Positions 5,729 to 56,282 are shown, counted from the stretch's first letter. The stretch: 64,000 nt of DNA from Candidatus Bathyarchaeia archaeon (GCA_050015395.1 JBEKBM010000012.1:19498-83497); one strand, 5' to 3'. Made by a program: numbers and translations. Notes: generated from the letters alone by a model not told the origin.

Positions 5729-6047
5729 AGTGAAATGAGAATCGCGAGAACCTTTTCTGGGAGTTTTATCTTGGGAGCATTTAACTCCGAAACGGGGTCA
5801 AAGTTTTGAGATCGATCGATAGGAATACGAGTTTATCCGGGAGTCTGGAGAGCTCCTCGCAGGCCTTTGGTGTATGGGACACTTGATTTAAACAGGGGAA
5901 GCGTGTTAGAAGGCGACGATGAACTCGACGAATGACGATCCTACTATGAAAACCGCTAAAGCGTCTTTATGTTTGCTTAGACAGATTGATTAAGGGCTTT
6001 AGAGATTTAGAAAACAAGCTTCAATGAAAGTTGCAGCGAAAGGGTAG

Positions 6048-45212: not shown

Positions 45213-45544
45213 TTGGAAATCATCCGTGTCAAACAGGTTATTTTTCTATAGATGAATATATCAGCTACTTAGCAATAGGATTAAATTATTGGTACATCCA
45301 AATAAACGTTACATAGTTATGTAATCTTGGCTAATGAAGGATTCGTCCAATAGATTGCTGTCCTATCTGGCAATAGGCCCTTTTCGCCTTTCACAATCAA
45401 TGTACATTTGTGAATTGTTCATGTATCGATTGTCTATTTAAGTGGTTTTGATTCTTACCATTGTTTACAATATTTCAATTTTTATGCGGTTATGTTTATA
45501 TATATCTTGTTTTACTAAACAAACGTCAAGTGAACCCTTAGGGT

Positions 45545-46027
45545 GTGAGAAGTTTGGGCTTAAAACTGAGTAAAAGCCCAACGAAAAAATTGGACGCCAT
45601 TGATCTGCAAATCATACGAGCATTGGAAGAAGATTCACGCGTAAGTTTGCGTAAGCTAGCTCAAAGAGTTGGAATAACCCCAAACGTTCTGCATAATCGC
45701 CTCGGCAGTCTAGAGCGTGAAGGCATAATTCTTGGATACGTACCCGTTGTCGATGCAGCTAAGATGGGTTATGCCTTGACCGCAATCATCATGATTCAGG
45801 TTGAAGGCGGGCATATTATTGAAGTCGAAAACGAAATTGCCAAAGAAAGCAACGTCTTATCCGTCTATGACATAACCGGAGAATATGATGCAATCGTCTT
45901 CGCCAAGTTCCGAGACAATGCAAGCCTTAATGGTTATTTGAAAAAACTGCTAACTGAGCGCTTCATAAAGAGAACCACTACGCTGATTGCTTTGAACGCT
46001 GTAAAAGAATACAGCAAAGTTATTTGA
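45545..46027 (+). CDS. Lrp/AsnC family transcriptional regulator (full HTH + RAM)
   Basis: LDAIDLQIIRALEEDSRVSLRKLA...YDITGEYD. Confidence 0.92.
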   Translation: MRSLGLKLSKSPTKKLDAIDLQIIRALEEDSRVSLRKLAQRVGITPNVLHNRLGSLEREGIILGYVPVVDAAKMGYALTAIIMIQVEGGHIIEVENEIAKESNVLSVYDITGEYDAIVFAKFRDNASLNGYLKKLLTERFIKRTTTLIALNAVKEYSKVI

Positions 46028-46169: not shown

Positions 46170-46850
46170 GTGTTTGAGTTGAAAAGCCTTAAAGGTATCT
46201 TGGTTGTAGGTGAAAAAAACATTTTCATCGAGCTTACACAAATAATCGCCATCGCTATAGAAGCCAACACTCTTGTATTAAACATGTTCAAAGAAGATTA
46301 CAAAGAAAAAGAGTTAACTGAAGCCATGCATGCGATGCAGTCGCTTGAGAAAAAATCTGATGAAATAGCCTTCAGAATAAGTGAAGAAATTACAAGCGGC
46401 GCTATCAGTCCCAACATAATAGATAGCCTTCTTGAAGGCGTCCAGTTTGCTGACGACATAGTTGACCTGTATTATTACCTGAGCAGGGAATTACATCGAA
46501 TGGCGAAAGCATACTCATCAGGTTTCGAATTGCAGCATGCTGATTGGGACTCTGTGTATGAGAACATTCTTGCCCTCGCGGAAAAAGCTCTCTTGAAGCT
46601 CAAGCAGGCGCTCTCTTCATCCAACGTTACGGAGATTTTGGAGTTGCGCAAAGAAATTGAAGCCTTAGAAGAGCAGGGCGATGACGTAAAGGACGCGGGA
46701 TTTGACAGGCTATATAGTATAACGCCGAGACTGTATTACTTACAGTTCTATCATTATTCTGAACTTTTGCACAAATGCGACGACATACTTGATTCTTGCG
46801 AGGACTTCTCTGACCTGATTGTCTCCGTGGTTACTTCCATCCTTAAGTGA
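46170..46850 (+). CDS. DUF47/PhoU-like phosphate transport regulator
   Basis: Repeated LEKKSDE / LEEQGDD helical motifs; adjacent to PiT. Confidence 0.85.
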   Translation: MFELKSLKGILVVGEKNIFIELTQIIAIAIEANTLVLNMFKEDYKEKELTEAMHAMQSLEKKSDEIAFRISEEITSGAISPNIIDSLLEGVQFADDIVDLYYYLSRELHRMAKAYSSGFELQHADWDSVYENILALAEKALLKLKQALSSSNVTEILELRKEIEALEEQGDDVKDAGFDRLYSITPRLYYLQFYHYSELLHKCDDILDSCEDFSDLIVSVVTSILK

Positions 46851-46856
46851 CATGGC

Positions 46857-47771
46857 ATGCTGTGGCTTTCAATCGTTATTCTCGTATTAACTTTCATCGC
46901 GGTAATGTTAGTTTCAGGCAACAACCTATCCGCATGCGTTGGTCCCGCCGTAGGCTCAAGAATCATAAGTAAACGATTTGGCATGCTACTGGGCGCTGCA
47001 GGGTTTTCGCTGGGACTTGTTGCCCAAGGCATGGGAATGACAAAAACAGTAAATGTACTGCTGCCAAATGTGGCTTTGCAGTTTCGGGCGGAAGCTTTGC
47101 TGGTGGCGATAATAATTTTTGTTGCTGCCGACTTAATTAGAGTGCCGATGTCTCTTAGCATGTCGCTTGTCGGTTTGCTCGCAGGCTTATCCATTGCAAG
47201 TGGTACACTTACAAACAGTGCTTACGTAGCTGAGGTAGTTGCCATGTGGGTTGCGGCACCCCTAATTGCTATAGTTTTTGCTTTTTACCTCATCAGAATC
47301 CTCAATAGGCGCTGGCCTGAAAACATTTGGCGAAGACTACAAACCTACAAAATCTTGCTTATTGTTTTAGCATTTTCTACTTCATATGTTCTAGGGGCAA
47401 ATACCCTTGGGTTGATAGTTGCCACAGGCGGTTTCAATATAACAACCATTATAGCCGCAATCGTCGCAATATTTATCGGAACGTTGTATTTGAGTGCCGG
47501 CGAGATTCGTAGGGTTGCTCAAGAGCTTTTTCTCATGCGGTACCCAAACGCGACGGCGACACTTGTGGTTTCAACAGTTCTCGTAGAGGCAGCTACGATT
47601 TTAAATATTCCACTTTCCAACACGCAAGCCCTCGCGGCGGCAGTTTTCGGAACAGGCATATCTTACAAATCCAAGTTCGTATCGCTCAAGCCGTTCCTGC
47701 TGATAGCGTTAAGCTGGGTAATCGCGCCTCTAATAAGCTTCACAATAGGGTTAATTATAGGCTCCATTTAA
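46857..47771 (+). CDS. Inorganic phosphate transporter (PiT family)
   Basis: SGNN and LGANTLG signatures, PLSNTQ, SWVIAP. Confidence 0.85.
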   Translation: MLWLSIVILVLTFIAVMLVSGNNLSACVGPAVGSRIISKRFGMLLGAAGFSLGLVAQGMGMTKTVNVLLPNVALQFRAEALLVAIIIFVAADLIRVPMSLSMSLVGLLAGLSIASGTLTNSAYVAEVVAMWVAAPLIAIVFAFYLIRILNRRWPENIWRRLQTYKILLIVLAFSTSYVLGANTLGLIVATGGFNITTIIAAIVAIFIGTLYLSAGEIRRVAQELFLMRYPNATATLVVSTVLVEAATILNIPLSNTQALAAAVFGTGISYKSKFVSLKPFLLIALSWVIAPLISFTIGLIIGSI

Positions 47772-48200
47772 TGTCTGTTGTTTTATGGTTTAGCGGTTTA
47801 GGGGGTGTGTTGCTTGGTGTTTGTTGGCTGGTTTTTTTAGTTCGGTATTTGCAGTAACGCTTTAGCATGGCAGCTTTTTGTTGCTATTTTTAGTTGATTT
47901 TTGCCACAAATAGTAGGGTAGGTCTATAGGTGACGGTTTGTGTTCAGGGCTTGTTTTAGGTTGCTTTTCTGGTTTAGGGGTTGAATTGATTGCAGGTTGC
48001 GGCTGGAAAAGGTGTAAAATGATAAAAAAAGTGGAAAAAGGCTAGAACCCTTGAAGAGCTAAAAAGGACCTGGTGTTATTGCTGGTTGAAAGCTAAATCT
48101 AAAGGATTGGATTTAGTGAAGTGGCTTGAATTCTTTTTTTATTTCTTGTAGGTTTCATTTGTCTATGTTCAAAGAATATTATTGGAAACCAGTCCAGTAT

Positions 48201-48240
48201 TTCATAAAAGTTATGAACAAATATTAACTATGTTTATATT
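48201..48240 (+). promoter_or_regulatory. Shared promoter/operator motif, copy 1 (APC permease)
   Basis: TTCATAAAAGTTATGAACAAAT-N10-TTTATAT; contains inverted repeat TTCATAA-AAG-TTATGAA. Confidence 0.7.
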
Positions 48241-48282
48241 TCTCTGAACATATCAATTGGTAAAATTAAATTGGTGTTACTA

Positions 48283-48390
48283 TTGAAAAAAGCTTCAAAA
48301 ACCAGACAGAACATTGAAGAACTGATTATCATAGACGCTCGAGGACAACCCCACAGTATCTTTCAAAAAAGAATTTCGAGGGAAACGTAG
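48283..48390 (+). CDS. Putative 35-aa leader ORF
   Basis: TTG start; MKKASKTRQNIEELIIIDARGQPHSIFQKRISRET*; stop overlaps the APC GTG (TAGTG). Confidence 0.4.
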   Translation: MKKASKTRQNIEELIIIDARGQPHSIFQKRISRET

Positions 48391-49940
48391 TGTCTAGCGA
48401 ACAAAGCGCACCCCCTCAGATGAAGAAAACCTTATCCCTCAGTGGGCTAACCATCAACGCCATGGCGTTAATAGCGCCCGGTGCATTTCTCTGGCTTACT
48501 TACGAATTACAAGCTGCTCAGGTAGACCCTTCAGGAGTCTCCACAGCTCCGGACATATGGACCGGTCTGTTCCTAGCATTGATACTGTCTTTCTTGACTG
48601 CCGCTTCCTACTCATGGCTATCTCGCCGTTACCCGGACGCTGGTGCAGGCAGCTCATACTACTTTGCTCAACGTGCTTTGCTTGACAGAGGCAGCAGCAA
48701 CAAGACTGCTAGAAACGCCAAGTTTATTGTTGGTTGGCTTTCCCATCTGTACTATTGGGTTTATCCAGGTGTCATGGTGGGAATGATGGGTTTCTTCATA
48801 ACATACATTCTGTCGACAGTCGGCATAGTAATAGCTCCGCTAACCGAAGTTGCAATCGTAGTTGCGTTCGCTGTTCTTGTAGGTTTCATAGCTTTCAGAG
48901 GAATCAACGGCTCCACGCGAACAAACCTTATGATCAACATAGCGCAAATTGGCATGCTTATTGGTGTGACAGGTGTTGCGCTGGCTTATCGCTTCTTAAA
49001 CCCTGACCACGTGAAATTCTACTTCTCAAACCCTGTTAGCGTGCTAATACCGAGCAGTGCAAGCCACATGCTATTTCAAGCAACCATCGCCATACTCGTG
49101 CTAGTCGGCTTCGAATCCGTAACTGCATTGACCGGTGAAGCGAAAAATCCAAAAGATGTTCCAAAGGCAATTATTCTCTCACTCGTCATTCAAGGCGCAT
49201 TTTGCTATCTGCTAGAGTTCTATGGCATGCAGGCATGGATTAACTCAAAGTACACATTTGGAGCGGCAGCAGCTTCCAACTCCCCAATAGGCGATATGAT
49301 AATTCAATCAATTAACGGGTTGTTTGGCGGTGGCGGCTTCATCATTATGCTTGTCGTAGCTGCGGTCGTCGCAACGGCAATACTAGGTACAACTCTATCA
49401 TGCATGAACACGGGCGTAAGAGTCACGTATGCAATCAGCCGCGATACTGAGGTCCCTGAACCGCTCGGAAAACTCAACCCAAGATACGGTACTCCTGCCA
49501 TCGGCATATGGGTGATGACTGCTGTGTCAGCTGGAATAGGTGCCTTCGGTGTCCTGTCGTTAACAAACTTGAGTGCAATCACGTATCTGTCCAACTTCGG
49601 AACTTTCCTGCTGTATGGTGTCACATGTCTCATTGCAGTCTATGCGCTTTCTCGAGAACGTCGCTCAATCCTGACCAAATACATAATTCCAATCGCTGGT
49701 TTAGCCGCCAACGTAGTCATGATGGTAACGCTTATCTGGCTAGCCGTAATAGGTGGAGGCGCCACACAATTGGCAGGGTTCATTGCAATAGCAGCAACTG
49801 CGATATGGATGGCCATAGGACTTGGATACTTCGCTCTGAACTCAAGAAGCAAAGAATCAAGAATCTTCCCCTTCCCAGGCAAAGAAACTGCGGAGGACAA
49901 AAACAGAAAGTATAGCATGGAAGAATTTCGGGCCAATTAG
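48390..49940 (+). CDS. APC superfamily permease
   Basis: About 12 TM; AGSSYYF, VGFESVTALTGEAKNP, RYGTP. Confidence 0.9.
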   Translation: MSSEQSAPPQMKKTLSLSGLTINAMALIAPGAFLWLTYELQAAQVDPSGVSTAPDIWTGLFLALILSFLTAASYSWLSRRYPDAGAGSSYYFAQRALLDRGSSNKTARNAKFIVGWLSHLYYWVYPGVMVGMMGFFITYILSTVGIVIAPLTEVAIVVAFAVLVGFIAFRGINGSTRTNLMINIAQIGMLIGVTGVALAYRFLNPDHVKFYFSNPVSVLIPSSASHMLFQATIAILVLVGFESVTALTGEAKNPKDVPKAIILSLVIQGAFCYLLEFYGMQAWINSKYTFGAAAASNSPIGDMIIQSINGLFGGGGFIIMLVVAAVVATAILGTTLSCMNTGVRVTYAISRDTEVPEPLGKLNPRYGTPAIGIWVMTAVSAGIGAFGVLSLTNLSAITYLSNFGTFLLYGVTCLIAVYALSRERRSILTKYIIPIAGLAANVVMMVTLIWLAVIGGGATQLAGFIAIAATAIWMAIGLGYFALNSRSKESRIFPFPGKETAEDKNRKYSMEEFRAN

Positions 49941-49944
49941 ACTG

Positions 49945-49970
49945 GGTCAAATTTGTTTGACCTTCTTTTT
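49945..49970 (+). terminator. Hairpin plus T-tract after the APC permease
   Basis: GGTCAAA-tttg-TTTGACC followed by TTCTTTTT. Confidence 0.55.
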
Positions 49971-50138
49971 CTTAAATTTTTCTTTATTTCAATCCGCATT
50001 TAAGTCGGCTCCATTTCTGTTCGTGAGAACCTGCGCAGTTTGGAAGATGTGTTGTTTCAACATGTTTTCCTGACTTTATGTTTTGGATGCGCTCATGTTT
50101 TCAATTATTAGACATTTTCATGTAAATTAGTCCAATTT

Positions 50139-50178
50139 TTCTGAAAAATTATGTACAAATCATAAATAGCTTTATATG
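50139..50178 (+). promoter_or_regulatory. Shared promoter/operator motif, copy 2 (kdp operon)
   Basis: TTCTGAAAAATTATGTACAAAT-N10-TTTATAT. Confidence 0.7.
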
Positions 50179-50483
50179 TTGAAGATGTTATGGATATGAA
50201 AGTCAAGGAGAAAAAAGATTGCAGAGCTTTACAGCCCCGTTCTGGATGAGAACTGGCTCAGCAGCCTCAGCGGTTTCCGCTTTCCTAAATCGAAGCTTTT
50301 CGATTAAGAAGCGGGCAAAAGCTGAAGGGATTTCATAAGTCGTAAAAACGCAGGATTAGCGGGTTATTATATGGTGATTTATATGAAAAGTGTGTGTACT
50401 GAATGTTCGTTGCAAAATGACCGTAGAGACGAAACGGAGTCAACGGTAGCGATCGTTCCCTTAGCGGAAAGGATAGTCTAGTT

Positions 50484-50774
50484 ATGAACCGATTATTAGC
50501 ATCTGTTAATATATTCGTGGAGCCGCCCCAAAAAGACCAAGTATTGACGGCTCTCGCAGAACTTACCAACATCGAAGAAATCTACGAGGTAGCCGGAGAA
50601 TACGACATAGTTTCATTAGTTTCTGCATCTTGCCTTGAAGAGTTCAGGGATGTCCTGCAGAAGAAAATAATGAAGATTAAAGGCATAAAGAGCACTATAA
50701 CAACGATAATTTTGCAACCTCACAAAGGACCAAGATGTTTAGCCGTAAAAGCTAATACTTCAGTAGCAAAATAG
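50484..50774 (+). CDS. Stand-alone Lrp/AsnC ligand-binding domain protein
   Basis: YEVAGEYDIV...IKGIKST; no HTH. Confidence 0.85.
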   Translation: MNRLLASVNIFVEPPQKDQVLTALAELTNIEEIYEVAGEYDIVSLVSASCLEEFRDVLQKKIMKIKGIKSTITTIILQPHKGPRCLAVKANTSVAK

Positions 50775-50830
50775 AAAGGAGTGGAAAGGAGCCATAGTGA
50801 GCACGAATGTTATCTGGAGTTTCGAAATAA

Positions 50831-52489
50831 TTGATCAATGCAGTTCAGGCGCTGACAGTCATCCTTATACTTGGAGTAACAATAGTTTTAGCGAAACTTA
50901 TAGCGCCCTATATTGTTGGAGTCTTTAAACGAAAACCAAGCCGTTTAGATAAAATACTAAATCCCATCGAGAACTTCATTTACAAAATCATCGGTGTAAA
51001 CACAGAACAGGTGATGGGTTGGAAGCAGTACTTCCTTTCGGGCTTGTTAGTAAACGTTGTTATGATGGTTATTGGTTTTCTAATCCTTGTCTTCCAAGGC
51101 AGCTTGCCCCTTAACCCCATGGGTTTTCCCGGTATACATCCGGACCTTGCCTTTATGCAGGTAGTCTCTTTCGTGACAAATACTGACCTGCAGCACTATA
51201 ACGGCGAAGCTGCTTTTTCTTATCTTAGTCAAATAGGCGTCCTCCAGTGGCTTCAATTTACCTCCGCAATCACAGGACTATGCATGGGAATCGCATTTAT
51301 CCGAGGATTAATCGTTGGCTCCAAAGACATGGGCAACTTCTACGTTGACTTCACTAGATCCATTACAAGAATTTTCCTGCCACTCTGCTTTGTAGCCTCA
51401 ATTATACTTCTCGCTTTGGGTGTACCCCAAACCCTCACCGGCTACACCACAGTAAAGACCATAGAAGGAGCCACACAATCAATTCTAGTCGGACCAGTCG
51501 CTTCTCTAGACGGCATAATGCAACTAGGCACAAACGGCGGCGGATTCTATGGTGCAAACGCTGCCTATCCCTTCATGAATCCTTCCCCCTACACGAACAT
51601 TATCATGATCTCTCTAATGCTTCTGCTTCCCACAGCGTTGCTCTTCGTTTTCGGAGAAATGATAGGCAAAAAAAGCGAATCCAGACCGCTTTTGTGGGGC
51701 GCTTACATTCTCTTCGGAATAAACCTATCCCTAGCATTTATTCCAGCTATCCCCTTGGTGGCTCCAGGGATTGAAACGAGGTTTGGCGGTTTCATGTCCA
51801 CTTTCTGGACCGTCACTACAACTGTTGCCACAACAGGGTCATTAAACTCCGCCTTAGCTGGAATGCATCCTCTGGCAATAACATCTGGTTTCATGGGCAT
51901 GTTCATTCAGTCAATCCCAGGCGGGAAAGGAGTAGGAATGATGTACATGGTAATGTTCGTAATAATTACCGTCTTCATCGTTGGGCTAATGTCTGGAAGG
52001 ACTCCTGAATACTTGGGAATCAAGATCACTGGCCGTGACGTAAAGCTTGTCATGGTGGCTTTCCTAATCCACCCCATTATCATACTAATACCCACAGTAA
52101 TCGCTTATGCTTCGGGCGCAGCGGCAGCCATTGGAGTCAGTGGAAACTCTGTGGGTTACACGCAAATCCTGTGGGAATTCACGTCAGCGGCGGCGAACAA
52201 CGGTTCCGATTTTCTAGGCGCCCAAGGAAACACCCCGTTCTTTAACATAGCTACCGCTATCGTCATGTTAATAGGACGCTTTGGTCCAATTGTAATCTTG
52301 CTTGCATTGTCAGGCTCTATGATTGGACGAAAACGAACCGGCACCACCTCGGGGCTCAAAACCGACAGCCTATTATTCACTATAGTTCTAGTCGGCAGCA
52401 TCCTTATACTCGTAGTATTAGCGTTCTTCCCGTTCTTGGCGCTGGGACCAATTTCATCATTCTTCGGGGGGTTAAAGAATGGCTTCTGA
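50831..52489 (+). CDS. kdpA: K+-transporting ATPase subunit A
   Basis: SFVTNTDLQHY, LGTNGGGFYGAN, GRTPEYLG, SAAANNGS. Confidence 0.96.
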   Translation: MINAVQALTVILILGVTIVLAKLIAPYIVGVFKRKPSRLDKILNPIENFIYKIIGVNTEQVMGWKQYFLSGLLVNVVMMVIGFLILVFQGSLPLNPMGFPGIHPDLAFMQVVSFVTNTDLQHYNGEAAFSYLSQIGVLQWLQFTSAITGLCMGIAFIRGLIVGSKDMGNFYVDFTRSITRIFLPLCFVASIILLALGVPQTLTGYTTVKTIEGATQSILVGPVASLDGIMQLGTNGGGFYGANAAYPFMNPSPYTNIIMISLMLLLPTALLFVFGEMIGKKSESRPLLWGAYILFGINLSLAFIPAIPLVAPGIETRFGGFMSTFWTVTTTVATTGSLNSALAGMHPLAITSGFMGMFIQSIPGGKGVGMMYMVMFVIITVFIVGLMSGRTPEYLGIKITGRDVKLVMVAFLIHPIIILIPTVIAYASGAAAAIGVSGNSVGYTQILWEFTSAAANNGSDFLGAQGNTPFFNIATAIVMLIGRFGPIVILLALSGSMIGRKRTGTTSGLKTDSLLFTIVLVGSILILVVLAFFPFLALGPISSFFGGLKNGF

Positions 52490-54662
52490 TAATAAGAAAA
52501 CTTTAGCGCCGACAAAAAGTAACGAATCCGCCTCTGGAGGAATGAGGTCAGCTTTCTCTAGAAAAGTGCTGGTCGATTCGGTAGTCCGTTTAAGCCCTAA
52601 ATCACTGCTCAAAAATCTAGTGATGCTGATCGTTGAAATCACGTTCTTTATTGTGGTAGCAATGGCTATCGTTCCACAGGCTTTCGGGCCGGTAGCCAGT
52701 TCCGGGCTGCGAGTCTTCTATGTTGAAGTCGCCGCAATTCTCATCATTACAGTTTGGTTCAGCACACTCTCCGATGCTCTTGCAGAGCAACAAGCAAAAA
52801 GCACAGCTGGCGCCTTACGGAAATTGGAAACAGAGGTGCCCGCAAAAAAAATTGTAACAGAAGAATGGACGAGAAAGATAGTTGCCGTAAAATCGACTGA
52901 ACTCCGAAAAGATGATCTTATCCTTATCGAAAAAGGCGACATCGTTCCCCTAGACGCTGATATACTTGAAGGAATTGCCATGGTTGACGAGTCGCTTGTC
53001 ACGGGTGAATCAGCCCCAGTTCGGAAGGCGCCTGGAGACTCGCTTATCGGTGGATCGCGAGTGGTTAGCGACACTCTAACTGCAAAAGTAACGACGAACC
53101 CTGGAGAGACCTTCATCGACCAAATGATAAAGATGGTTGAATCGGCTAAGAGGCCAAAGACGCCCAACGAAGTTGCAATAACCATTGTGCTGATTGGATT
53201 GACCGCCATCTTCACCATTATAATAGTTGCTTTGCTAGGCATGTCGATCACGCTGGGTCTGGACGCTGACCTCTCCGTGCTAATCGCACTCTACGTTTGC
53301 CTCCTCCCCACAACCATAGGAGCTCTGCTTCCAGCAATCGGACTTTCCGGAATGTCCAGACTATACAAGAGTAAAATAATTGCAAAGTCCGGTAAAGCTA
53401 TAGAAACCGCTGGCGACGCAGACGTCGTTCTCCTCGACAAGACAGGCACCATTACGGTGGGCAACAGGCAAGCTATAAAGTTCGTACCATTGGAAGGATT
53501 TACAGAAGAAGAAGTAGGGGAAGCAGCATTCCTTTCTTCATGGCATGATGATACTCCAGAAGGACGCAGCATACTCAGGCTCGCATATGAGAAAGGTTTC
53601 ATACCAAAAGAACTGAACTCTCTCGCACTTTCAGAAACTTACCCGTTCTCAGCCAGCACCCGCACGAGCGGAGTGAAAATAACTCACATGGGCTTAACGC
53701 TTCCAAAAGGTGACAAATCAGGACGAGACCGACTGAGAATCAGAAGAAAATCCTCAACAGTATCCGAACCAGGCGTTGCCTCAAGAATCGAACCTGAAAT
53801 TGAAATCGTCAAAGGCGCTCCAGAAGCCATCAAAAAAATTGTAGCTTCCGTCCCTCCAAACTATGACCTCATCATAGAAGGAATATCTGCAGAGGGCGAA
53901 ACACCTATAGCCATCGCAAGAAACCGCGAAGCCATCGGAATAATCAGACTGAAAGACGTCCTCAAAGAAGGCATAAAAGAAAAAATTCACGATCTTAAAG
54001 TCATGGGAATACGCCCAGTCATGATAACTGGAGACCAACCACTTACTGCAAAAAGTATTGCATCAGAGGTTGGAATCGACGAGTATGTGGCGCAGGCCAA
54101 GCCCGAGGACAAGTACAACATCGCCAAGAAGGAGCAAGCTGAAGGCAGAATTGTCGCAATGATTGGCGATGGAACTAATGATGCCCCAGCACTTTCTGCT
54201 GCAGATGTAGGTTTGGCTATGAACTCTGGCACAGAAGCTGCTAAGGAGGCAGCAAACATGGTTGACCTTGAATCAAATCCCGCAAAAATAATTGATGTCG
54301 TCATGCTTGGCAAGCAACTATTAATGACCCGAGGCGCCGTCACCGCTTTTAGCATAGCTAACGATGTAGCTAAGTACTTTGCAATCATGCCTGTTCTGTT
54401 TGCCGCTGCTATACCTCAACTGGCAGCTTTGAACATTCTGCACCTTGGCTTGAAAAGTGCAGTCTTGTCCGCTTTAATATTCAACGCTATTATCATACCG
54501 CTTTTGATTCCTCTTGCCATGCGCGGAATCGCATTTAAACCCACCAGCACCATGACGCTTTTCCTCAAGAACACCTTAATCTACGGGGTAGGCGGCGTCA
54601 TCGTGCCATTCGTAGGAATCAAACTGATAGATCTGCTCCTTGTGGGAGTATTTCACGTTTAG
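52479..54662 (+). CDS. kdpB: K+-transporting ATPase subunit B
   Basis: TGESAPV, KTPNE, DKTGTIT, GDGTNDAPAL, SIANDVAKYF. Confidence 0.96.
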   Translation: MASDNKKTLAPTKSNESASGGMRSAFSRKVLVDSVVRLSPKSLLKNLVMLIVEITFFIVVAMAIVPQAFGPVASSGLRVFYVEVAAILIITVWFSTLSDALAEQQAKSTAGALRKLETEVPAKKIVTEEWTRKIVAVKSTELRKDDLILIEKGDIVPLDADILEGIAMVDESLVTGESAPVRKAPGDSLIGGSRVVSDTLTAKVTTNPGETFIDQMIKMVESAKRPKTPNEVAITIVLIGLTAIFTIIIVALLGMSITLGLDADLSVLIALYVCLLPTTIGALLPAIGLSGMSRLYKSKIIAKSGKAIETAGDADVVLLDKTGTITVGNRQAIKFVPLEGFTEEEVGEAAFLSSWHDDTPEGRSILRLAYEKGFIPKELNSLALSETYPFSASTRTSGVKITHMGLTLPKGDKSGRDRLRIRRKSSTVSEPGVASRIEPEIEIVKGAPEAIKKIVASVPPNYDLIIEGISAEGETPIAIARNREAIGIIRLKDVLKEGIKEKIHDLKVMGIRPVMITGDQPLTAKSIASEVGIDEYVAQAKPEDKYNIAKKEQAEGRIVAMIGDGTNDAPALSAADVGLAMNSGTEAAKEAANMVDLESNPAKIIDVVMLGKQLLMTRGAVTAFSIANDVAKYFAIMPVLFAAAIPQLAALNILHLGLKSAVLSALIFNAIIIPLLIPLAMRGIAFKPTSTMTLFLKNTLIYGVGGVIVPFVGIKLIDLLLVGVFHV

Positions 54663-54674
54663 GAAGCAATAACT

Positions 54675-55145
54675 ATGACAACTGAACAAAAAGAAAAATG
54701 GAACCTAAAGAACCTAAGACCGATTATAGGATTAGCAGTGGTTTCGCTGTTGATTTGCGGACTATTTTTCCCACTATTAATCACGGGTATAGGCCAAGTT
54801 TTCTTTCCCTACCAAGCGAACGGCGAAATCGTCCAGCTCAACGGGCAAGCTGTCGGATCAAATCTTATAGCTCAAAACTTCACCTTGCCCATTTTCTTCC
54901 AGGAAAGAAACGAGTCACAGTCAGCGTCAGGCGTGGACCCTGACATTACGCTTCAGCAAGCATATTCACAGATACCCCGAATAAGCAATGCAACCGGGAT
55001 TCCTGTCGATTCGTTAACAAATATAGTGAACCAGAATCAGGAGGGAACGCTTTGGATCTTTGGCAGCCCATACGTAAACGTCTTGCGAATCAATCTGGTG
55101 CTCATAAAAGAATATCCTGCCATCTATAGCGGATTTTCGGGATAA
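54675..55145 (+). CDS. kdpC: K+-transporting ATPase subunit C (short form)
   Basis: FPYQANG, GSNLIAQ, SASGVDPDI, VNVLRINL. Confidence 0.92.
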   Translation: MTTEQKEKWNLKNLRPIIGLAVVSLLICGLFFPLLITGIGQVFFPYQANGEIVQLNGQAVGSNLIAQNFTLPIFFQERNESQSASGVDPDITLQQAYSQIPRISNATGIPVDSLTNIVNQNQEGTLWIFGSPYVNVLRINLVLIKEYPAIYSGFSG

Positions 55146-55343
55146 TAGTTAGCGTCTGATGAAGCATCTCGACATAACCTGATGATATTTTCCAAAACGC
55201 CCACAGCAGTCTATTTTAAACAAATTTCCAGTCCTAAAGTATTTCATGATACAATTGTTGAGTAATAAATGGAATTGCTGTTTGTATGGCAAGATAAAGT
55301 ATAAATACATCGAACTCGTGTTCAATAAGGCAAGACGACCTGT

Positions 55344-55637
55344 ATGCCGAAACTACTTGCATTTGTGGACATATTTGTTGAATCTCCAGAGATGGATACC
55401 GTGTTAGCCTCGCTTGCCCAATTGGAACACCTCGAAGAATTATACGAAGTTACCGGCGAATTTGACATCGTAACTTTGGTTTCAGCTGCTGACATAGAAG
55501 AATTTCGAGACATCCTCAAGAACAAGATCATGAAAATAAAAGGTGTAAAAAGCACCGTAAGCTCGATTGTCCTTAAAGCTCACAAAGGACCAAAATGCAT
55601 CGAAGAAACCAACCTGCCAGCATCCGCACCTGTTTAA
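55344..55637 (+). CDS. Stand-alone Lrp/AsnC ligand-binding domain protein (paralogue of 50484)
   Basis: YEVTGEFDIV...EEFRD..KIMKIKG.KST...HKGP.C shared with 50484. Confidence 0.85.
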   Translation: MPKLLAFVDIFVESPEMDTVLASLAQLEHLEELYEVTGEFDIVTLVSAADIEEFRDILKNKIMKIKGVKSTVSSIVLKAHKGPKCIEETNLPASAPV

Positions 55638-55748
55638 TTTAGCAGTTTATTTTTTTGGGAACCATCACCTGTATCTTTCTTCTTGAAGTCACTACTTCTA
55701 AAAAAATCAAAAAAATGATTGAGGAACTTTCAGCTTCTGCATAAGAAG

Positions 55749-55985
55749 CTACATTGGTGACAGAACGATGGAAGTTTCGGTGCGGATTACGTTGGGATCT
55801 TTTTCGATTATTTTATAAACCACTTGGTTTATTTCTTCAAGCGCTGGGGCTTCTAAACCTATTATTGCGTCGTATCGGCCGAAGATGGCGTCGGCAATGA
55901 TGGTCTCTTTTACTTTTTCTTTTATTCTCTTAACGACTTCCAATGATGTGCCTGGTTTGGTGCTTAAGAGTATATAGGCTTTCAT
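55749..55985 (-). CDS. Stand-alone Lrp/AsnC ligand-binding domain protein
   Basis: AYILL...FGRYDAI...VIRTETSIV. Confidence 0.78.
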   Translation of the reverse strand: MKAYILLSTKPGTSLEVVKRIKEKVKETIIADAIFGRYDAIIGLEAPALEEINQVVYKIIEKDPNVIRTETSIVLSPM

Positions 55986-56098
55986 TTTTTTTTACCTCTT
56001 TGTGTTTTTCTTTTTCACTCGGTTTTTGTTTAAACGTAACACTATTTAATTTTATTGCATATAAATTTTCTGTTTTAATTTAGACGGCTGTCTAACTT

Positions 56099-56138
56099 TT
56101 ATGAAAAATTATGAACAAATCACAATTACATTTATATT
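56099..56138 (+). promoter_or_regulatory. Shared promoter/operator motif, copy 3
   Basis: TTATGAAAAATTATGAACAAAT-N10-TTTATAT. Confidence 0.7.
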
Positions 56139-56180
56139 TAGCTGGGCAATTAACTAAGTATAAAATAAAAAGGTGAAAAT

Positions 56181-56282
56181 ATGTTTGGAATAATAATTGA
56201 TGTAGCTTCAATAGCCACAATCATCGGTTCATTTGCCTTCATAGTGTACAGCATCAGGGTAGAACTCAAAACCAAAGTGTAA
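56181..56282 (+). CDS. 33-aa single-TM peptide (KdpF-like candidate)
   Basis: AGGTGA RBS; MFGIIIDVASIATIIGSFAFIVYSIRVELKTKV*. Confidence 0.6.
   Translation: MFGIIIDVASIATIIGSFAFIVYSIRVELKTKV

Follow-up and report, generated by a model that had tools for sequence, protein, structure and literature searches.

The closest described counterparts of the locus reported here come from several families of regulators. In bacteria, KdpD/KdpE control the pump genes kdpABC. Amt with P-II is the classic nitrogen-controlled pair, and in the NrpR regulon of methanogens the operator reads GGAA-N6-TTCC. Ribbon-helix-helix (RHH) regulators include NikR, Arc, MetJ, CopG and omega, and many RHH proteins are repressors; NikR half-sites read GTATGA/TCATAC, and omega binds heptads in both orientations. 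Here, we describe a 42-bp regulated-promoter module in a 64,000-nt stretch of DNA (hereafter the window; JBEKBM010000012.1:19498-83497) from the genome of an uncultured Candidatus Bathyarchaeia archaeon of peat (G000; 2.59 Mb, 98.9% complete), where it precedes an APC permease, a kdpABC operon and a 33-aa membrane peptide. In archaea, a kdp system without KdpDE is represented by kdpFABCQ of Halobacterium salinarum, and the operator and the BRE-TATA elements (BRE, transcription factor B recognition element) of its kdpFABC promoter were mapped by Kixmuller et al. (2011), as cited in the available part of PMC4299497. Archaeal Lrp activators (Ptr2, LysM and Ss-LrpB) are described in the available part of PMC2995911 as using AT-centred inverted repeats near the BRE, at constrained spacing. 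The module resembles each of these systems in part.

The three gapless 40-mers reported in the first-pass annotation of the window were recovered exactly at 48201, 50139 and 56099, all on the plus strand, with 30, 30 and 33 identities of 40. The similarity starts about 11 bases 5' of the 40-mer and reaches as far as the TATA box; the flanking sequences are not related to one another. The 40-mers proved to be part of a 42-bp module consisting of three heptad boxes one helical turn apart, with the consensus TTCATAA (box1), TTATGAA (box2) and ATCAYAA (box3), followed by TTTATAT. M1 (48199..48240) carries TTCATAA at 48201-48207, TTATGAA at 48211-48217, ATATTAA at 48221-48227 and TTTATAT at 48233-48239. 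M2 (50137..50178) carries TTCTGAA at 50139-50145, TTATGTA at 50149-50155, ATCATAA at 50159-50165 and its TATA box at 50171-50177. M3 (56097..56138) carries TTATGAA at 56099-56105, in direct rather than inverted orientation, TTATGAA at 56109-56115, ATCACAA at 56119-56125 and its TATA box at 56131-56137.

The specificity of the module was evaluated by pattern and matrix searches. Allowing two mismatches or fewer, TTATGWACAAAT-N10-TTTATAT matched the window at these three places only, against 0.00 matches expected from 100 dinucleotide shuffles. A weight matrix trained on 78 instances from other genomes only, scanned across the genome (5.18 million positions), returned four sites, at 65.0 (M3), 64.2 (M1), 62.8 (M2) and 51.2 bits, and the rest of the genome scored 12 bits or less. 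With the TATA columns removed, the same four sites scored 34-45 bits and the next best position 12.7 bits; reversed or complemented controls gave none above 15 bits. The fourth site lies outside the window (contig C2, ~5838-5866, minus strand), 5' of a gene for a 41-aa hydrophobic peptide. Ordinary promoters of this genome have only the TATA box in common with the module. The small number and high scores of the sites indicated that the element is real and rare and is no general promoter feature. The proposal of a specific element at fixed spacing 5' of a TATA box was supported, and with four sites in 2.59 Mb the motif is not common at unrelated promoters.

The anatomy of the module was counted over 146 unique sites from relatives. 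Box2 reads TTATGAA at 119 of these sites and box1 reads TTCATAA at 71, while box3 occurs as ATCACAA, ATCATAA, ATCTTAA, ATCTCAA or ATATTAA and stands 5 bp from the TATA box, which is TTTATAT at 101 sites and CTTATAT at 28. Module columns left unconstrained in the search pattern were also strongly conserved. Box1 is a perfect inverted copy of box2 (7-3-7) at 66 of the 146 sites and a direct copy (TTATGAA) at 14, M3 included; the latter class precedes the 33-aa peptide. Moreover, box3 is doubled in tandem, adding 10 bp 5' of the TATA box, in the kdp promoters of G020 (L032, ~7767) and G055 (L183), and the spacer of the G012 kdp promoter is shorter by one base, so that relatives provide natural spacing variants of the operator. 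The presence of both inverted and direct box1, together with the duplicated box3, suggested that a reader of repeated short boxes fits better than a reader of a strict palindrome.

The distribution of the motif was assessed in close relatives, which are Bathyarchaeia/Bathyarchaeota metagenome-assembled genomes from peat, bog, palsa and soil. Of 24 further genomes of the genus, 23 gave raw pattern matches, whereas the 16 genomes sampled from other families of the order gave 0; the reversed-pattern control matched 0-1 times per genome. Matrix scoring retained clear sites (>30 bits) in 20 of the 24 genomes; the matches in G006 and G017 were chance-like, the better of two in G018 reached only 21 bits, and G021 had no match. 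In a draw from the family searched at one mismatch or fewer, the motif was present in 9 of 81 genomes and 7 of 70 genera. A diverged motif (27 bits) was found in G035, a genome of another family of the order. Conservation of the module at orthologous sites spans the genus and several sister genera, and one other family has a diverged version. The module is also gained or lost between species, as glnA and a P-type ATPase gene carry it in G016 and lack it in G000.

Pfam was used to name the first gene downstream of each of 83 unique sites that scored above 30 bits in an unbiased sample of 21 genomes. P1-type membrane peptides, relatives of the 33-aa peptide P1, followed 14 sites in 9 genomes and the APC permease 10 sites in 9 genomes, while a RAM-only gene leading kdp, an ammonium transporter gene (amt) and a CitMHS-type transporter followed by a second Amt each accounted for 6 sites in 6 genomes. 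The genes glnA and asnB were each found at 2 sites in 2 genomes, and the remaining sites preceded other small peptides (12), other open reading frames (ORFs; 10) or unclassified sequence (15). In other genera, the motif stands 5' of a KaiC-like ATPase gene plus amt at 6 loci and of amt alone at 1. At L190, L191, L192, L194, L196 and L198, a single-domain KaiC-like ATPase of 256-257 aa precedes Amt in the operon; in genomes lacking GlnK, it may serve Amt as a KaiC-type partner. P-II genes were found in 3 of 81 family genomes, and all three end KaiC-like/Amt operons with the motif. The occurrence of the motif before KaiC-like/Amt(/GlnK) operons outside the genus indicated that its oldest target is ammonium uptake. 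Judged from gene content, what the targets have in common is the uptake of ammonium and the assimilation of nitrogen; kdp was added at the level of the genus.

This content, with amt, glnA, asnB and, in three genomes, P-II behind one operator type, resembles the NrpR regulon of methanogens and the P-II-Amt pair. In contrast to the NrpR regulon, the site here lies upstream of the TATA box, the best match to the NrpR domain (PF01995) in this genome was 19.7 bits, below the 25-bit cut-off, and P-II gave 0 matches in the genome. The NrpR operator is also unlike the module.

The most likely reader of the module is a conserved RHH protein of 181 aa, encoded by a single-copy gene outside the window (contig C1, 32813-33355, minus strand). 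At 7 of 7 Amt loci of other genera, an RHH gene stands directly upstream of the motif and encodes ~180 aa with N-terminal RHH_1, and the orthologue of this genome is 59-79% identical to the proteins at these seven loci. The Pfam RHH_1 match had E values of 2e-8 to 5e-6 in 8 orthologues. The RHH gene is upstream-adjacent to a motif site in 14 genomes, lying 71-158 nt upstream in G002, G007, G008, G014 and G015; in G011, an Lrp gene stands in between (RHH, Lrp B, motif, amt). In G035, a member of another family, the RHH gene is followed by the diverged motif and then by Amt (E 7e-134).

The RHH gene and the motif also co-occur. In the family draw, the RHH gene is present in 12 of 81 genomes, including 9 of 9 motif-positive ones, and the motif was found in 0 of the 69 RHH-negative genomes at the limit of one mismatch; when two mismatches were allowed, sites of 51 and 38 bits were found in two of the three other genomes with the RHH gene. 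Within the genus, gene and motif are concordant in 21 of 24 genomes. The motif-less G006, G017 and G018 are without the RHH gene, while G017 and G018 keep the universal Lrp of the genus.

The predicted structure of the RHH protein is consistent with a DNA-binding domain joined to a further domain. Residues 4-47 resemble DNA-bound RHH domains in the model, including PutA (2rbf; Z score 6.7, root-mean-square deviation 1.5, 44 residues aligned) and NikR (1q5v; Z 6.0). The RHH fold matches span Z 5.9-6.7, with AmrZ and Arc among them, so that the N-terminal 45 residues are predicted to adopt the fold of DNA-bound RHH domains. Invariant His, Asp and Cys residues cluster mid-protein, and the extra C-terminal alpha/beta domain with invariant His, Asp and Cys recalls RHH regulators that carry a sensor domain. 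Likewise, short boxes about one helical turn apart and in either orientation recall RHH box-repeat operators, and the NikR half-sites resemble TTATGA/TCATAA of the module. Neither NikR_C nor any other Pfam domain beyond RHH_1 was matched by the candidate, and its predicted C-terminal fold is weakly H-NOX/Bet3-like; NCBIfam likewise gave no match beyond RHH_1, and NikR appeared in the fold search only for the RHH part. In the Protein Atlas, the RHH C-terminal domain matched unnamed archaeal clusters best, at 0.87-0.89, which is below the meaningful level, and the 120 listed of 828 database relatives are all unnamed or generic RHH regulators. In contrast to known RHH regulators, the site lies upstream of an archaeal BRE/TATA and the targets are uptake and nitrogen genes.

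Several points weigh against the RHH protein as reader and against a nitrogen signal. The RHH gene of this genome adjoins no motif. Sites were found with the RHH gene undetected in G005 (92% complete) and G022, and the RHH gene was found with no site in G021 (65% complete) and G086. The co-occurrence counts treat related genomes, which are non-independent samples, and the RHH-negative family genomes were searched at one mismatch or fewer only. The structure prediction had a mean predicted local distance difference test score of 75.5 and was built from 9 sequences, and the resemblance of residues 100-181 to the H-NOX distal subdomain (Z 8.1-8.6 over 72-80 residues) and to Bet3 is middling by the yardstick of the tool. 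Furthermore, glnA, both amt genes and a P-type ATPase gene of this genome are without the motif; the nitrogen reading thus rests on relatives, in which the operator does precede amt, glnA and other nitrogen genes. Taking these points together with the adjacency and co-occurrence, we favour on balance, though with modest confidence, the view that the module is the site of a lineage-specific factor, with the RHH protein as its likeliest binder, a nitrogen signal, and Lrp and RAM proteins as co-regulators.

A partial inverted box2 core was noticed by eye ~90 nt upstream of the respective TATA box of two regulator genes, the RHH gene on C1 and the window's Lrp gene (~45400-45430). The core upstream of the Lrp gene scored less than 8 bits and was rejected as a site. 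Both cores score below any threshold and may be chance occurrences or weak autoregulatory sites.

The first-pass annotation had suggested control through the Lrp-family protein encoded at 45545. This gene (Lrp A, 45545..46027, plus strand) encodes a full-length Lrp/AsnC regulator 2.2 kb 5' of M1 and is a conserved neighbour of the island. The broader explanation is that an Lrp-family protein reads the module, Lrp A here and Lrp B at amt islands, possibly as mixed oligomers with RAM-only proteins, the RHH gene being a neighbour or target. The physical linkage of Lrp-family genes to motif clusters was confirmed and speaks for this explanation. Clade A adjoins the APC/kdp island and occurs in 13 of 61 genus genomes. 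Clade B (41-45% identical) stands immediately 5' of motif-amt in six genomes, and in three it is found close to kdp. Of 17 accessory (A/B) Lrp genes in 24 sampled genomes, 13 had a site at a distance of 3 kb or less and 16 at 11 kb or less. At 34 of 35 loci with a close Lrp A relative, and at 0 of 45 loci with a distant Lrp, a site scoring above 20 bits was found within 6 kb. At 6 of 7 Amt loci of other genera, the gene just 5' of the RHH gene encodes a clade-B-like Lrp (Lrp B).

The geometry of the module also speaks for an Lrp and against the RHH protein. Box1-N3-box2 forms a 17-bp AT-centred inverted repeat, as the available part of PMC2995911 describes for Lrp dimers, and it falls within the definition given there for Lrp/AsnC-type sites (an imperfect inverted repeat of 13-17 bp with an AT-rich centre). 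Its BRE-proximal position and constrained spacing are those of the activators Ptr2, LysM and Ss-LrpB in the same source. Full-length Lrp together with stand-alone RAM genes in one island further recalls FL11/DM1 assemblies. The closest NCBIfam model to the window's Lrp is the Halobacterium Lrp (121 bits, below the 190-bit cut-off); in Halobacterium, the lrp gene adjoins glnA, and glnA is induced on Lrp overexpression (PMC2894021, available part).

However, no single cognate Lrp following the distribution of the motif was found among clades A, B and C. Clades A and B differ in their recognition helices and yet flank the same motif, and neither was found (at E 1e-20) in the motif-bearing genomes G001, G004, G010, G022 and G024. 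Clade C, which is universal in the genus sample, has the same helix in the motif-less G017 and G018. Lrp genes stood beside P3-type motif sites at only 1 of 6 loci looked at, in G024. Moreover, sites of the class found before the 33-aa peptide have box1 as a direct repeat of box2, an unusual arrangement for an Lrp dimer with two-fold symmetry. Unlike the sites of known Lrp systems, the three boxes here share the middle one. Three other Lrp paralogues were considered and rejected as binder: two are present in all of 5 genomes compared (three motif-bearing and two motif-less), and the third has no close match in those 5 genomes (best 41% identity, in G010 only). The Lrp at 45545 was therefore weakened as binder, given a clade confined to 13 of 61 genomes against a far wider motif, a different helix in clade B and the better fit of the RHH protein, and we consider reading of the module by an Lrp-family protein unlikely. 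The neighbouring Lrp and the three RAM-only proteins are probably local ligand-sensing co-regulators of the island, and both Lrp clades linked to motif clusters, A and B, probably take part in co-regulation.

If the RHH protein is the reader, its signal could still be something other than nitrogen, namely the general cation, acidity or nutrient-scarcity status of an organism living in peat. The targets are chiefly varied transporters (Kdp, Amt, APC, CitMHS and a P-type cation ATPase), and such a signal would explain the joint control of potassium, ammonium and amino-acid or organic-anion transporters. The relatives come from peat, bog and soil, and the lack of the motif at the nitrogen-assimilation genes of this genome points in the same direction. 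However, glnA and asnB encode assimilation enzymes, not transporters, and Amt with P-II, before which the motif stands in three genomes, is the classic nitrogen-controlled pair. A non-nitrogen signal is thus improbable, in our judgement somewhat more so than an Lrp reader.

The first-pass annotation had read the island as a candidate potassium regulon. The part of this reading that joins the permease, kdp and the peptide in one regulon held up; the potassium label did not, since the motif of relatives precedes amt, glnA, asnB and CitMHS. The motif drives four units in this genome, namely the 39-aa ORF with the permease, RAM-kdpABC-RAM, the 33-aa peptide, and the 41-aa peptide on C2. Two of these, the kdp operon and the 33-aa peptide, are tied to kdp, which would suit a factor that senses potassium or turgor in place of KdpDE. 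The 33-aa peptide comes after the kdp operon in G000, G003, G009, G019 and G020, and two relatives have a TrkH gene and an MscS gene in more distal positions of operons that the motif drives. KdpD (PF02702) had 0 matches in the genome, whereas the same profile matched 6 of 14 reference genomes used as a control. KdpD was thus found neither in the window nor elsewhere in the genome. A KdpQ-like USP gene is likewise missing from the window, so that the operon has no kdpQ; the two Usp genes of the genome are on contigs C8 and C6.

The distribution of kdp argues against a potassium signal. The motif is much wider than kdpA, which is present in 21 of 61 genus genomes, and the targets that are most widespread and oldest are amt (joined by P-II in three genomes), glnA and asnB. 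Among 17 kdp loci examined in the genus (four further loci fall outside this count), the element or a recognisable variant was found at 14, with a clear site before the RAM-kdp operon at 8 and a weaker or indel variant at 6. The suspicion that orthologous kdp loci might lack the element was therefore not borne out; nevertheless, three loci (G010, G059 and G070) had no motif within 2 kb upstream of kdpA. We regard a potassium-responsive regulon as quite unlikely. As in bacteria with KdpD/KdpE control, the pump genes are kdpABC, but the KdpD family was not found here. As in Halobacterium kdpFABCQ, an archaeal kdp system without KdpDE has an operator next to a BRE-TATA promoter; in contrast to Halobacterium, this operon has no Usp-type kdpQ within the window and no recognisable kdpF, it contains RAM-only genes, and its operator is common to nitrogen genes in relatives. 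Separately, kdpA is split over several frames or interrupted by stop codons in G023 (C15:65633-67158), G044 (C5) and G063 (C28, C4), and in G023 the motif is still upstream of the broken gene. The broken copies in three genus genomes point to ongoing kdp loss.

The last alternative, that no specific factor exists and that a strong constitutive promoter cassette or small mobile repeat has spread, is very improbable. Gain and loss at orthologues (glnA and the P-type ATPase gene in G016 compared with G000) speaks for it, but the shared part is 42 bp only with differing flanks, ordinary promoters of the genome match the TATA box only, the boxes are conserved at fixed spacing across genera, and no terminal repeats or transposase were seen.

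From the motif, its rarity, conservation and targets, and from an RHH gene that co-occurs with it and adjoins it in relatives, we infer binding, the signal, the sign of control and the roles of the Lrp and RAM proteins as follows. The module would be the binding site of a transcription factor specific to one Bathyarchaeia family. Several RHH dimers would occupy the three boxes on one helix face, abutting BRE/TATA, and would thereby control the recruitment of TBP/TFB. The putative C-terminal sensor domain would set the occupancy of the RHH protein, and the Lrp and RAM proteins would add local ligand-dependent modulation. The ancestral target would be the ammonium transporter operon, the module having later been copied within the genus onto other uptake and assimilation genes; given such an ancestral target, the signal is most likely nitrogen status.

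Activation is predicted to be somewhat likelier than repression. The many repressors among RHH proteins, which count against this expectation, mean that the sign could be either. A position wholly upstream of the promoter at fixed spacing is the arrangement described for archaeal Lrp activators in the available part of PMC2995911. The regulon is best described as lineage-specific and probably nitrogen-linked, covering uptake functions that include kdp, and its most likely reader is a new RHH-sensor protein that has Lrp and RAM proteins as partners. We put forward more tentatively, and as rather less probable, the full version of this reading, in which a regulator combining an RHH domain with an H-NOX/Bet3-like sensor runs both nitrogen and cation uptake with exchangeable Lrp/RAM partners, and Kdp is switched by nitrogen status.

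The genes of the island agree with the earlier description, in which M1 is followed by the APC permease, M2 by the kdpABC operon and M3 by the 33-aa membrane peptide. Between Lrp A and M1 lie PhoU_div (46170..46850) and a PHO4-family transporter gene (46857..47771), both on the plus strand, and the genome matrix scan showed no motif 5' of these two genes. All further genes are on the plus strand unless stated. Between M1 and the permease is a small ORF of 39 aa with a TTG start (48271..48390), whose stop codon overlaps the permease start codon. Comparable small ORFs were seen in the same position at L032, L085 and L109 by sequence reading, with no formal alignment, and many motif promoters are followed by a small ORF with its ATG 40-46 nt 3' of the TATA box. 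The permease itself (48390..49940; 516 aa; AA_permease_2, E 2e-23), the first large gene after M1, had no match among solved structures (PDB), either as a single sequence or as a 12-sequence profile; it may or may not be a KimA-like K+ transporter.

The kdp operon begins with a gene for a stand-alone RAM (Lrp/AsnC ligand-binding) protein of 96 aa (50484..50774), followed by kdpA (50831..52489), kdpB (52479..54662) and kdpC (54675..55145). A RAM-only gene is the first gene 3' of the motif at 16 sites. The gap between the RAM gene and kdpA measures only 57 nt, and Pfam recognised no gene for the small subunit kdpF. A second stand-alone RAM protein of 97 aa is encoded 3' of kdpC (55344..55637), and a third, of 78 aa, on the minus strand (55749..55985), divergent from M3 and with its own TATA-like sequence at ~56060-56070 on that strand. 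The RAM domain has 24 matches in the genome, with ~8 full-length Lrps and ~11 stand-alone RAM proteins, three of them in the island. A scan of the window with Rfam returned one tRNA only and nothing in the long leaders 3' of M1 and M2.

The 33-aa peptide P1 (56181..56282), a single-helix membrane peptide, has its ATG 43 nt after the M3 TATA box. Its alignment with 16 relatives has 5 invariant and 8 near-invariant positions, and it had no match in Pfam, KdpF included, up to E 10; a KdpF-like role is a guess. At L063, L067 and L074 (G023, G012 and G010), a motif site was seen 0.3-0.85 kb upstream of the ribosomal S13-S4-S11/RNA polymerase subunit D operon, with a P1-type peptide in G023 and G012; P1 is thus not always a kdp neighbour. 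Hydrophilic peptides of 20-21 aa ending YFPHV were seen ~40-47 nt behind the motif at L038, L042, L065, L068 and L072, and a longer relative ending YFTHI at L039. At L045, the first large ORF downstream of the site is a radical-SAM gene.

A peat metatranscriptome (one run, contigs of 90-99% likeness) covered the permease gene in parts, kdpB over a short piece, and the two RAM genes 3' of kdpC. As these contigs give no starts, strands or levels and come from related strains, they were not used as promoter evidence. Over the minus-strand RAM gene (55729-55984), one contig from a related strain turns back on itself ('goes back 256'), probably because a small transcript with high coverage was misassembled.

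The Bathyarchaeia are an abundant, uncultured group, and the literature searched contains no account of their gene regulation and nothing on an RHH protein together with an ammonium transporter in archaea; for kdp control in Bathyarchaeota, no report was found at the level of titles and the openings of abstracts. The locus offers a testable circuit that can be read from sequence, with a sharp operator, few targets and a candidate factor that can be named and has a putative sensor domain. The gain and loss of the module at orthologues between species provides a natural case of regulon turnover. If the proposed reading is true, kdp would be under a KdpDE-independent control of a mode not described in archaea, and this would be the second archaeal case, after Halobacterium, of kdp control without KdpDE. 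The RHH-sensor reading concerns a family almost entirely without P-II, and a genome that is also without NrpR; it would show how an archaeon lacking P-II or NrpR controls ammonium uptake.

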